A stretch of DNA of 64,000 nucleotides, from assembly GCF_013167455.1 (NCBI RefSeq), contig NZ_CP038328.1; one strand, given 5' to 3'. The translations under genes were made by a program, and so were the position numbers. Position 1 is the stretch's first letter; every line of letters begins with the position of its first letter. Positions 28,916 to 31,971 of this stretch are shown in pieces. The notes below the pieces were generated by a model. It did no database searches, had not been told where the DNA came from, and saw only the letters and a program-made list of their open reading frames with translations. Source of the DNA: Escherichia coli O157:H7. GTDB taxonomy: Bacteria; Pseudomonadota; Gammaproteobacteria; Enterobacterales; Enterobacteriaceae.

Positions 28916-29254
28916 CTATTTCCCTGAATTTACGACGAAACTGTTCGAGCGGGCTGAAGCACTCATGCTCATAGCCTTCGCGGAGGTAGATAACCCGTTG
29001 TGTTTCCGGTTCCCAACGAATGACTCTGACGGGCACTCCGTAGTGATCTTTGAACCAGCGGTTAACTTGTCGCAAAGGACTGTCTCCTTTTGCCTGTTGA
29101 AATCACCCACAGCCCACTCTGCAAAGCTGTGGGTTACAATTTCCCTGTCACCTGGTACATTCACTGCATAGCAATACTCCACCTTCGCTTTTCCACCCGG
29201 TACAGGAAGTGCAATCAGTTGCGAGCGACGGTAGTGTGTTGTTAAACTGTTCAT
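28916..29254 (-). CDS. Hypothetical early protein (e14 YmfM-like position)
   Basis: 112 aa ORF between the CII-like gene and the replication initiator. Confidence 0.4.
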
Positions 29255-29802
29255 GCGTTAGTTTCTCCACAGTCACGACACGCCACGGCGCCCGGAGCTG
29301 CACACTCGCGGGCGTCATTACTTTCTGAAATGCAAAAAATTTTGTAGACCAGTGCTGCATGCTCCTGCAGCTTCGAAATTGAGAGGTACAGCTCGTCGTT
29401 AATTGCTGTCTTCTCATGCGGTTCCACTACACCGTCTTCAATTGCTGAACGAATCTGTTTTGAATAACTGCCGATCTGTTCAATGACCTCCAGCAGGCGT
29501 TGGTTGATATCGGCGTTGTCCACATCCTCGACATCAGGAAGAGACACAAAGACGCCATTTGCAGACTGCGCCACAGCGTCAGCAATGAAGTGAGTTCCAC
29601 CAGCACGTTGCAAAATCATTGCCCATCCCAGCGGGAAAATCTGATCGCCATCGGCACGAAGGCGGTTAAATAATGCGTTCTCTGTTACATCCAGCCAGTC
29701 AGCAGCTTCAGCGTACCCCCCCGGCAACGCTGCGATAGTTTTTCTGACAGCTTTCACGTACCACTCAGGCTGTTTTTCTACTTTCCAGTGATGCTTACCC
29801 AC
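29251..29802 (-). CDS. Phage regulatory protein, CII-like (e14 YmfL-like position)
   Basis: 183 aa, GTG start preceded by AGGAGG, immediately downstream of cro. Confidence 0.45.
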
Positions 29803-30055
29803 GGTTCACCTCCTGTTCCTGTGGTTTAAACCCATTCTGGTTTTGGCTAGATTGAAAACGTGCCGGATAAAGAATCTGCATTTCGCTGACTTCACCCTTA
29901 AAAAAATTGGCTAAACGTTCTGCAAGCTCGATAGATGGAATCTGCTCCAGCCTCTCAATACGACTCAACGTCGCTGGATTGACTTGAACACCCGCAGCAA
30001 CATGCTGCAAAGTGAAACCATGCGCCTTACGCACATTTCGTAATGGTGATTGCAT
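29795..30055 (-). CDS. cro: Cro-like HTH repressor
   Basis: 86 aa; XRE-type HTH (..VRKAHGFTLQHVAAGVQVNPATLSRIERLEQIPSIELAERLANFF..); divergent from cI. Confidence 0.8.
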   Translation of the reverse strand: MQSPLRNVRKAHGFTLQHVAAGVQVNPATLSRIERLEQIPSIELAERLANFFKGEVSEMQILYPARFQSSQNQNGFKPQEQEVNRG

Positions 30056-30152
30056 ACGCCCTCCAAATATTGCGCGTTATGCATGTTATTTCACGCAATT
30101 ATTTTGCGCAAGTTGATTTGCTTATCACGCAATAAAGAAATGTAATAAACGC
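30056..30152. promoter_or_regulatory. Right operator / divergent promoter region between cro and cI
   Basis: 97-bp intergenic region containing TTGC-N7-GCAA type sites (TTGCTTATCACGCAA at 30118-30132; TTGCGCGTTATGCAT at 30070-30084). Confidence 0.65.
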
Positions 30153-30845
30153 ATGAACATAGGAAACCGAGTCAGACAACTTCGCCAAGCGAAGAACATG
30201 AAAATCGCCGATCTCGCTGAAGCGATAGGAGTAGATGCGGCGAACATCTCGCGCTTAGAAACGGGTAAGCAAAAACAATTTACCGAACAAACACTGAGTA
30301 ATATTGCCAAGAGCTTAGGTGTTGATATTGCTGATCTCTTTACCTCTGCCCACAAAAGTAATACTGTATATAAAAACAGTAATAATGAGGATGTTGCGCA
30401 GGTGAAGGATGTGTTCCGTATTGAAATGCTGGATATCAGTGCCAGTGCGGGAAATGGCCTTATCCAGGGCGGTGATGTCATTGATGTGATTCATGCCATC
30501 GAATACAGAACTGATAATGCTGTATCAATGTTCGGCGGACGACCAGCCAATCACATCAAAGTTATCAACGTTCGTGGGGACAGTATGTGTCCAACCATTG
30601 AGCCAGGAGATCTCATCTTCGTTGATGTCAGCATCAATCAGTTTGATGGTGATGGTATATATGTCTTTGGTTTTGATGACAAAATATACGTTAAAAGACT
30701 TCAAATGATTCCTGACAAACTGCTGGTGATTTCTGATAACCAGATTTACCGTGAATGGGGAATTACTAGCGAAAACGAACACCGATTCATGGTCTTTGGA
30801 AAGGTCTTAATCAGTCAGTCGCAAACCCTTAAGAGACATAATTAA
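30153..30845 (+). CDS. cI: CI-type prophage repressor (HTH plus S24 LexA-like peptidase domain)
   Basis: 230 aa; N-terminal HTH (..IADLAEAIGVDAANISRLETGK..), C-terminal ..GDSMCPTIEPGDLIFVD...KRL.. autocleavage domain. Confidence 0.9.
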   Translation: MNIGNRVRQLRQAKNMKIADLAEAIGVDAANISRLETGKQKQFTEQTLSNIAKSLGVDIADLFTSAHKSNTVYKNSNNEDVAQVKDVFRIEMLDISASAGNGLIQGGDVIDVIHAIEYRTDNAVSMFGGRPANHIKVINVRGDSMCPTIEPGDLIFVDVSINQFDGDGIYVFGFDDKIYVKRLQMIPDKLLVISDNQIYREWGITSENEHRFMVFGKVLISQSQTLKRHN

Positions 30846-30862
30846 CCTCAATATCCCATCCA

Positions 30863-30888
30863 TCGGCCACCGAAAGGTGGCTTTTTAT
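30863..30888 (+). terminator. Rho-independent terminator after cI
   Basis: cggccacc gaaa ggtggc followed by TTTTTATT. Confidence 0.8.
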
Positions 30889-30898
30889 TACCTATAAA

Positions 30899-30949
30899 TT
30901 TGCATATCTCGCAAATACCACTTGCATATCTCGCAATTTAATTTTATCT
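30899..30949 (+). promoter_or_regulatory. Left operator / pL-like promoter: two 15-bp direct repeats TTGCATATCTCGCAA
   Basis: Repeats at 30899-30913 and 30921-30935 (22 bp centre to centre), same TTGC-N7-GCAA pattern as the right operator; TTGCAT -35 at 30921-30926, 17-bp spacer, TATCTT -10 at 30944-30949. Confidence 0.5.
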
Positions 30950-31140
30950 TTTATTCCAGACCAACTACAGGATTACAACAAAATCTGGTTGCAACACGGT
31001 GCATGTGTCGTAAGCAGTCAGTAAATGTCAAAAACGAACAGGCAGGACGCCCACGAAGTAGCCGCCTGGGGCATATGAAGTCCAGGATGATTCGTTGAGT
31101 CATGTTGTGCCACTAGGCACTCATGTTAAAGCAGGTGTAT

Positions 31141-31419
31141 GAAATGAAAGTCCAGATTTTAAACAATAACTGTGAAGTCGTTTGGTCATACGACATAGCC
31201 GCCCCTGTAGATCAGAGCGGCGATAGCTGGACCAATGGGAAACATCAGATTATGGCTGGAGTTGTGTTCTCTTTACGCCGTGCTTTAGAACAGGCTGAAG
31301 TCTTTCCATCAGACCCTGAATGGAAATGGCCTTTTTCTATTTGTCCAAATTCGGAGAGTACATTTCAGAAAATTGGTCAGAAAGTCGCACTCGAAGAGCA
31401 TCAGCCAACTGTTTCCTGA
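31141..31419 (+). CDS. Hypothetical small protein (early-left operon)
   Basis: ORF 31123..31419; ATG at 31141 with AGGTG upstream; no family recognised; 3' end overlaps a convergent ORF. Confidence 0.35.
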   Translation, partial: EMKVQILNNNCEVVWSYDIAAPVDQSGDSWTNGKHQIMAGVVFSLRRALEQAEVFPSDPEWKWPFSICPNSESTFQKIGQKVALEEHQPTVS

Positions 31420-31582
31420 TTTTTTCAGGTAACTCGTCGGCATCGCAGAAACAACAACGCTCGATCATGTTGAAAGCCGATTCGTAGAACTGTTTTTGCT
31501 GAGTGTCGCTGAGACAGGAAAAGAGCGACGTTACGATGATTTTATTAATTGCATTATCAAGTTCTTTTTCATCAAAAGTCAT
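31337..31582 (-). CDS. Hypothetical small protein, convergent to the early-left operon
   Basis: 81 aa; strong AAGGAAAA Shine-Dalgarno 7 nt before ATG at 31582; contains CCFC motif; no family recognised. Confidence 0.4.
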   Translation of the reverse strand: MTFDEKELDNAINKIIVTSLFSCLSDTQQKQFYESAFNMIERCCFCDADELPEKIRKQLADALRVRLSDQFSEMYSPNLDK

Positions 31583-31837
31583 TTGATTTTCCTTTTATGT
31601 ATACGGGCTTAAAAGGATACCACCGAGCCTGAAGTGGTGAAAAGACAGGCACATAACAGCTAAGTATTTTCAACCAGAGAGAATCCTTAGCGTTGTGGTG
31701 AATGCGGCTCAGCGCACGCGGGTTAAGGTTGAGGCTGACAGTCGACCTTCTGTGGATACCCACCCGCCTGGTGTGCAACCTTCGCCAGGCACCGGGAGGC
31801 ACCCGGCACCACAACTTTATGCTGTGTGTAGTCTTAG

Positions 31838-31882
31838 CGGTACCAGCTTGTACCCTTGCTTCCGGCTGGTACCGTCCTTTTT
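31838..31882 (+). terminator. Terminator-like hairpin (10-bp perfect GC-rich stem plus U-run)
   Basis: cggtaccagc (31838-31847), 17-nt loop, gctggtaccg (31865-31874), then TCCTTTTT. Confidence 0.5.
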
Positions 31883-31971
31883 ACAAAACAGAGAAGAGCA
31901 TCACCGGACGACGGGCTCATAACCCAATCCATCCGGGCGGCTGCCACCGCAGGTGTTCTTCTCTGTTTTGT
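31883..31971. other. Long-range 15-bp inverted repeat enclosing a GC-rich loop (structured non-coding element)
   Basis: acaaaacagagaaga at 31883-31897 pairs perfectly with tcttctctgttttgt at 31957-31971; further GC hairpin gcccc tac ggggc at about 31984-31996. Confidence 0.4.

Follow-up and report, generated by a model that had tools for sequence, protein, structure and literature searches.

The 64,000-nucleotide (nt) window of Escherichia coli O157:H7 DNA analyzed in this study contains, at positions 29251-30950, the immunity region of a lambdoid prophage (Table 1). Its central genes are cI, encoding the repressor, and the divergently oriented cro, which is followed by a cII-like gene of the CP76 family. 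The cI gene ends at an intrinsic terminator, whose stem is kept in related phages with compensated changes. The region is 99.3% identical to that of the Shigella phage SfII (KC736978), and the same immunity type is shared by the Shigella serotype-converting phage SfII, phage mEp460, and phages that convert their hosts to production of Shiga toxin 2 variants (Stx2a and Stx2k). The GenBank record of SfII contains annotations for cI, cro, and cII and, among the sites of the switch, only for the terminator. Inverted repeats of the TTGC...GCAA type flank cI on both sides, in the right operator region (OR) between cro and cI and in the left operator region (OL) beyond the cI terminator. Based on their sequence, placement, and conservation, we predict that these repeats are very probably the operators of the prophage CI and that the locus forms a genetic switch of the lambda style.

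Exact matches to TTGC-N7-GCAA occur three times in the window, the mean for shuffled sequences being 2.64. Since this number is close to the expected one, the count alone is unremarkable, and it is the placement that stands out: all three matches are situated in the non-coding DNA that flanks cI, a total of approximately 200 nt for which a Poisson model predicts about 0.008 matches (P ~1e-7). Two of them, OL-a and OL-b, are perfect 15-base-pair (bp) repeats, 22 bp apart from start to start, and the first copy begins 14 nt after the T-run of the cI terminator. The third, OR-d, lies between cro and cI. A fourth site, OR-a, surfaces when three mismatches are allowed. The refined consensus is the 15-bp palindrome TTGCR-N5-CGCAA. 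The sequence-only reading had already pointed to the perfect repeats just past the terminator and to related intergenic sites, and had proposed from them a repressor operator model for both sides of cI. Both observations hold, and the model is supported by every computational test run, with refinement of the consensus, of the OR layout, and of the site inventory by a weak site within cro.

Independent evidence comes from a weight matrix that was constructed only from the sites of five relatives, namely mEp460, Stx2a_1447, Salmonella phage S.Typ Adana, Klebsiella phage ST147-VIM1phi7.2, and Escherichia phage Eeyore, whose CI proteins are 96-67% identical to the present one. In a scan of the whole window, OR-d, OL-b, OL-a, and OR-a are the four best 15-mers (17.3-19.4 bits), and the next one scores 11.2 bits. 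Further, leave-one-out scans find sites in every relative at -133, -83, and -35 relative to the cI start and at approximately +55 and +78 past the cI stop, and these offsets are held even in phages with CI of only 67-83% identity.

The natural variation of the sites follows the same pattern. In 170 related loci collected from GenBank and IMG/VR, positions 1-4 (TTGC) and 11-14 (CGCA) of the sites are essentially invariant, and positions 5-10 take many values. Two OL sites, with spacing of 22-24 bp, are present in 167 of the 170 loci. A single OL site is seen in the other three; one of these, the IMG/VR locus L050, lacks exactly one 22-bp repeat unit, a loss of the kind that recombination or slippage involving two identical 15-mers would be expected to produce. 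There are 22-23 natural versions of each OL site, and the identical copies of the present window represent one haplotype; thus the functional unit is the inverted repeat within the 15-mer rather than the direct repeat. Among 67 distinct sequences with cI at least 99% identical, polymorphism is depleted in the half-site cores (Fisher p 9e-4, non-core versus core positions). Finally, phage SfV, which has the same flanking genes and unrelated cI and cro, served as a control and contains no TTGC-N7-GCAA match in 5.4 kb.

Table 1. Genes, predicted operators and promoters, and other features of the immunity region (positions in the window; a dot in the strand column marks sites listed without strand)
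Feature	Position	Strand	Remarks
cII-like gene	29251-29802	-	CP76 family (Pfam); after cro in PR operon
cro-like gene	29795-30055	-	86 amino acids, HTH_3; first gene of PR operon; called Cro in SfII
Weak auxiliary operator-like site	30020-30034	.	ATGCGCCTTACGCAC; cro codons 8-12; about +50 from predicted PR start
OR-a, predicted operator (OR1-like)	30070-30084	.	TTGCGCGTTATGCAT; 17.3 bits; TTGCG and GCAT invariant, centre varies in relatives
Predicted PR, promoter of cro	30083-30111	-	-35 TTGCGC (30111-30106), 17 nt, -10 TAACAT (30088-30083)
Putative half-operator (OR2-like)	30097-30111	.	AATTATTTTGCGCAA; right half GCGCAA forms the PR -35 when read on the minus strand
OR-d, predicted operator (OR3-like)	30118-30132	.	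TTGCTTATCACGCAA; 19.4 bits, top of window; at cI start -35 in all relatives
Predicted PRM-like cI promoter	30118-30146	+	-35 TTGCTT (30118-30123), 17 nt, -10 TGTAAT (30141-30146)
cI repressor gene	30153-30845	+	230 amino acids; N-terminal HTH_3, C-terminal Peptidase_S24
Intrinsic terminator of cI	30865-30886	+	hairpin 30865-30882, then T-run; annotated in SfII
OL-a, predicted operator	30900-30914	.	TTGCATATCTCGCAA; 18.6 bits; upstream partner of OL-b; 22 natural variants
OL-b, predicted operator	30922-30936	.	TTGCATATCTCGCAA; 18.6 bits; spans -35 and spacer of PL; 23 natural variants
Predicted PL	30922-30950	+	-35 TTGCAT (30922-30927), 17 nt, -10 TATCTT (30945-30950)
Structured RNA candidate	31033-31096	+	64 nt; in PL leader

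Three promoters can be placed in relation to these sites, their assignment being based on position and conservation. At the left promoter PL, the close relatives all have the TATCTT hexamer with unchanged spacing, and both features are kept in the Klebsiella and Eeyore phages. The -10 box of the right promoter PR is TAACAT or TAATAT in the relatives, where TTGCGCAAGTTG is invariant. The -10 box of the predicted cI promoter is separated by 6 nt from the ATG at 30153, and both TGTAAT-N6-ATG and the 17-nt spacer are found in all relatives, including those with 67-83% identity. No Shine-Dalgarno sequence is seen upstream of the cI ATG. The short distance from the -10 box to the ATG implies that the cI mRNA is leaderless; the PRM promoter of lambda has the same geometry and a leaderless cI mRNA. 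The first base of OL-b is also that of the predicted -35 hexamer of PL, and OR-d stands in the same relation to the cI promoter, both promoters being on the plus strand. OR-a is centred on the predicted PR start and shares two bases with the 3' end of the PR -10 box, an overlap that explains the conserved final T of this site (GCAT rather than GCAA). The TTGCnn half-site would double as the -35 hexamer at PL, PR, and the cI promoter, a neat economy of the switch.

The layout of OR is less regular, consisting of two strong sites 48 bp apart and one half-site between them. Of the putative half-operator, only the right half is invariant across the 170 loci, the left one being degenerate; the site lies 21 bp upstream of OR-d and is centred at about -49 on the cI promoter. 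In the Klebsiella phage ST147-VIM1phi7.2, a fuller site, TGGCGAATTGCGCAA (14.9 bits), occupies this position. The palindrome CGCAA-TTATT-TTGCG at 30094-30108, considered as another operator candidate, was rejected because it is not conserved in distant relatives. The remaining site, situated inside cro, is the sixth-best matrix match of the window (10.0 bits); a site is present at the corresponding position, cI start -133, in every relative, and in phage Eeyore it is a perfect palindrome, TTGCGATTTTCGCAA (18.2 bits).

It is quite possible, albeit not the version that we favor, that only the two OL and the two strong OR sites are operators and that the half-site and the site in cro are by-products of the PR -35 box and of coding. 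Indeed, the site in cro scores only 10 bits, the half-site falls below zero when scored as a full site, the N-terminus of Cro (xRKxH/Q) is conserved, and the PR -35 requires GCGCAA. On the other hand, the three more distant relatives, Adana, the Klebsiella phage, and Eeyore, spell the site in cro with the codons TTG, CGA/CGG, and TCG, giving the perfect palindrome in Eeyore, and the 21-bp spacing between the half-site and OR-d mirrors that between OL-a and OL-b.

The coincidence of TTGCnn with the predicted -35 boxes of PL, PRM, and PR also allows for a reading without any repressor bound to the 15-mers, in which the repeats are promoter elements only, several promoters are packed together, and TTGC is kept as the -35. 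This is very unlikely: the right half CGCAA, for which a -35 box has no need, is conserved as strictly as TTGC; OL-a and OR-a, which lie away from the -35 positions, are equally conserved; and the motif is gone in SfV, where the repressor type differs. Binding of another regulator, either the CII-like activator or a host factor, seems slightly less probable still. The recognition repeat of lambda CII (TTGC-N6-TTGC) contains TTGC, and a CII-like gene adjoins the sites. However, the present halves are inverted and separated by 7 bp, whereas those of lambda CII are direct and separated by 6 bp, and the neighboring protein belongs to the CP76 family, not to the family of lambda CII, so that an identification as lambda CII activator sites was rejected. 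Moreover, one of the sites lies on the PR start, which is the position of a repressor, and the sites track the cI/cro allele, whereas the CII-like gene is common to SfV-type phages that lack the motif. Finally, clustering by chance, compatible with the total of three exact matches for 2.64 expected, has a negligible probability, being refuted by the confinement of all three to the surroundings of cI, by the matrix scan that independently returns the sites as top matches, by the leave-one-out scans, and by the conservation of the positions across the 170 loci.

Judged from its sequence, CI is a lambdoid repressor, combining a helix-turn-helix (HTH) domain of the XRE family with a LexA-like S24 peptidase. 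The HTH_3 domain was found at residues 7-62 (Pfam, E 1.2e-11) and the Peptidase_S24 domain at residues 104-218 (E 6e-19), and the protein matches phrog_4, annotated as transcriptional repressor. An Ala-Gly cleavage site together with a Ser/Lys dyad are hallmarks of RecA-stimulated self-cleavage in the LexA/lambda CI family. CI contains them as Ala99-Gly100 and Ser144/Lys181, all four residues being invariant even in comparison with the SfV CI (23% identity). Among solved structures, there are weak generic matches to XRE proteins and UmuD, as well as to the 434 repressor (1per, E 0.008), and no close characterized or solved relative of CI. The recognition-helix sequence DAANISRLETGKQ is kept, or nearly so, in all five relatives used for the matrix. 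By analogy with other lambdoid switches, and from a visual comparison in which the recognition helices match (xxAxxSRxE), the operators are almost certainly common to CI and Cro.

The start of cI is annotated inconsistently. The start that yields 230 amino acids is used in SfII and phiSTEC1575-Stx2k, and the internal Met16 (215 amino acids) in mEp460, Stx2a_1447, and 1720a-02. With the internal start (30198 instead of 30153), the HTH_3 match would lose its first residues; by analogy with the 434 repressor, the loss would correspond approximately to the first helix.

Several observations weigh against the operator interpretation or parts of it. The support is derived from sequences, and CI binding as well as the transcription starts are predictions. 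No full operator exists between OR-a and OR-d, the 15-mers starting at 30084, 30094, and 30104 scoring -0.6, -33.8, and -1.3 bits, respectively. A BLASTP comparison of the CI N-terminal domain with Cro gives no alignment, which speaks against the sharing of operators. The conservation of the site inside cro may be due in part to the Cro protein sequence. The promoter that the repeats were said to overlap in the sequence-only reading is present as far as its -35 and -10 hexamers and their 17-nt spacing are concerned, but it falls below the threshold of a consensus promoter scan of 29700-31300, in which nothing reached the threshold, PL, PR, and the cI promoter included; PL was missed because TTGCAT agrees with TTGACA at only three of six positions. 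Finally, OR-d is the best-scoring site of all, which is awkward if its role is to shut off cI. The matrix score is not the same as affinity, as the work on phage 933W warns (PMC3317979).

These observations suggest the following mechanism. Each site would be occupied by one CI dimer, whose contacts would be confined to the outer 4-5 bp of the two halves, with none to the 5 bp in the centre. At OL-b, the dimer would cover the PL promoter from the -35 box to about -21 and exclude RNA polymerase, and a second dimer on OL-a, about two helical turns upstream, could stabilize it by dimer-dimer cooperativity. PL is expected to drive the early-left operon through xis and int. On the other side of cI, CI on OR-a would repress cro, the cII-like gene, and the replication genes; this repression may be aided by the weak site that lies within cro at about +50. 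OR-d is positioned on the cI promoter in the same register as OL-b on PL, implying negative autoregulation of cI, and it is the likely target by which Cro shuts off cI. The half-site could be filled cooperatively, its spacing to OR-d mirroring that of the OL pair. As OR contains no clear middle operator, lambda-style positive autoregulation cannot be inferred. The cI mRNA would start at or beside the AUG, leaderless like that from lambda PRM. Upon SOS induction, activated RecA would stimulate self-cleavage of CI and thus release PL and PR.

The 67 sequences with nearly identical cI revealed one more property of the region. The cI and cro coding sequences and OR are almost invariant, with the mean minor-allele frequency of 0.0047 at 125 four-fold degenerate sites. 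At the non-core positions of 30888-30936 it is 0.106, that is, approximately 22 times higher, and 23 of the 30 non-core positions are polymorphic versus three of the 125 four-fold sites (Fisher p 3e-18). Three bases at 30057-30059, between the cro Shine-Dalgarno sequence and the ATG, are equally variable and form eight haplotypes. Even where 1,048 nt covering cro, OR, and cI are completely identical, as many as nine OL haplotypes (in 14 sequences) and five haplotypes of the cro spacer occur. The differences among OL haplotypes of identical background are scattered substitutions of single bases, transitions for the most part; as they do not form blocks, recombination of blocks was rejected as the cause. 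A second set, with cI of the mEp460 type (19 distinct sequences), replicates this pattern in part: the OL flank, the spacer, and the OL-b centre are variable, and the cro spacer is invariant.

We tentatively consider the centres of the two OL sites, their intervening spacer, the 12 nt preceding OL-a, and positions 30057-30059 to be hotspots of recurrent point substitution, an interpretation that we regard as rather doubtful. Short gene conversion from related co-resident prophages may be the cause, as some alleles of the upstream flank match mEp460- or Stx2a-type sequences. Alternatively, diversifying selection could retune the set-point of the switch, through the repressor affinity of OL and the translation of Cro, with the immunity specificity unchanged, or long-term occupancy by the repressor in lysogens could be locally mutagenic. 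If selection or mutagenesis is indeed the cause, this very common prophage is a natural experiment on the evolution of genetic switches.

The leader of the predicted PL transcript contains a candidate structured RNA element with the 27-nt invariant core AGGCAGGACGCCCACGAAGTAGCCGCC. The element is predicted to form two helices, in which compensatory changes were observed at 10 of 16 predicted pairs in eight sequences, and G·U pairs favor the plus strand. It was found in 45 phage records from Escherichia, Shigella, Salmonella (ST64B, SPN3UB), Yersinia, Klebsiella, Citrobacter, Pantoea, and Pectobacterium. In six further retrieved loci with different immunity types, the element follows a cI- or LexA-like gene at approximately 100-170 nt (the repressor gene of mEp237 is cut at the edge of the retrieved locus). 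A search of Rfam with E up to 1 gave no match to the element, and the covariance model finds no second copy in the window. Identity with the put sites of HK022 was considered and rejected: BLAST reveals no similarity to the immunity region of HK022, and the covariance model detects no copy in HK022. In addition, putL begins at the 5' end of the transcript (PMC9378689), whereas the present element starts approximately 75 nt after the predicted PL start. Our guess is that it acts in cis, as an antitermination or anti-Rho element.

The immunity region is carried by 1,039 of 5,426 complete E. coli genomes, or 19%, in some of them in up to three copies. Several genomes of E. coli O157:H7 contain a prophage, integrated beside the tRNA-Thr gene thrW and proA, that is 100% identical to the segment 30000-30960; of the E. 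coli genomes with the region, 303 have it with at least 99% identity and 640 with 90-95%. Downstream of PL are a phrog_3195 gene of unknown function, the deoxynucleoside monophosphate phosphatase gene yfdR, more genes of unknown function, xis, and int. Two overlapping convergent open reading frames, 31123-31419 on the plus strand and 31337-31582 on the minus strand, have full-length matches to phrog_3195 and phrog_3311, respectively. The former corresponds to orf33 of SfV and is without annotation in the SfII record; the latter corresponds by position to SfII_36, whose annotated version is shorter (192 versus 246 nt). Further, positions 31662-31884 (plus strand) give a full-length, sub-threshold match to the Rfam family STnc100 (43 bits for a gathering score of 47, E 2.8e-7). 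STnc100 is a small RNA of gammaproteobacteria. The match lies within the early-left operon and overlaps a frameshifted hypothetical gene annotated in O157:H7.

The switch is ordinary lambdoid in kind, and its logic is as expected and would not surprise a specialist; the operators of this widespread immunity type are not described in the literature searched. The searches, which covered papers available without subscription, yielded nothing relevant on the operators of SfII or mEp460 or on the literal sequences of the sites and the leader element. The map of operators and promoters gives targets for studying the induction of Shiga toxin phages, and the compact, well-defined switch, in which OR and PL are contained within about 0.9 kb, may be of use in synthetic biology. 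The natural-variation footprint separates presumably contacted from uncontacted bases without experiment.

The arrangement shares with lambda the divergent cI and cro, the repressor with an N-terminal HTH and a C-terminal S24-type domain, predicted here to be RecA-sensitive, the palindromic operators on both sides of cI that overlap PR, the cI promoter, and PL (the promoters being predicted here), and the distance of 21-24 bp between adjacent sites. It differs in many details. The site is the 15-bp TTGCR-N5-CGCAA instead of a 17-bp one, and there are two OL sites instead of three. OR consists of two strong sites 48 bp apart with a half-site, whereas lambda has three evenly spaced ones, and three evenly spaced sites (at approximately 23-24 bp) are found here in neither OR nor OL. 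One site covers the -35 box of the cI promoter and no full site occupies the activating position, the half-site being centred at about -49, so that positive autoregulation is not supported. Further, there is no rexAB between cI and OL, and the distance between OL and OR is only about 0.8 kb. An N gene is also absent according to the comparative paper on SfIV, which treats the cI and cro of SfII in general terms only and reports the absence of N, cII, and cIII homologs (PMC3851460).

The nearest described layout is that of 933W, an Stx2 phage studied in the Koudelka laboratory, the likeness consisting in the length, symmetry, and number of sites. Two of the five 933W sites lie in OL, as do two of the sites described here, while OR of 933W contains three. 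Both phages encode an S24-type lambdoid repressor, and both occur as E. coli O157:H7 prophages. The repressors are different members of the family, and not close ones: the CI proteins of the Stx2a phages EH2246 and 14040, which we presume to be 933W-like, are approximately 38% identical to the present one. The sequence of the half-site presumably differs as well. The 933W site is 15 bp long and rotationally symmetric about the central base pair, with five natural sites, and the repressor is reportedly non-cooperative (PMC3317979). With the 434 and P22 repressors, the present CI shares the HTH_3 (434-type) fold, and the operators resemble those of 434 in having conserved outer bases and a variable, probably uncontacted centre. 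In 434, the central bases tune the affinity. The 434 operator is different in being 14 bp long, with the sequence ACAA-N6-TTGT, and there is no close sequence relationship.

The closest counterpart in gene order is SfV (U82619, annotated with a 'putative operator region'), which has the same architecture and the same flanks, including the CII-like gene, the replication genes, and the PL leader. Two repeats past the cI terminator overlap a -35 box in SfV as well, that box being TTGACA. However, its cI and cro are unrelated to the present ones (the 23% identity of CI given above), and repeats of the GTACC type are situated at the equivalent places. Thus we predict that SfV is heteroimmune to the prophage described here, and the same map of operators and promoters predicts which other prophages are homo- or heteroimmune.

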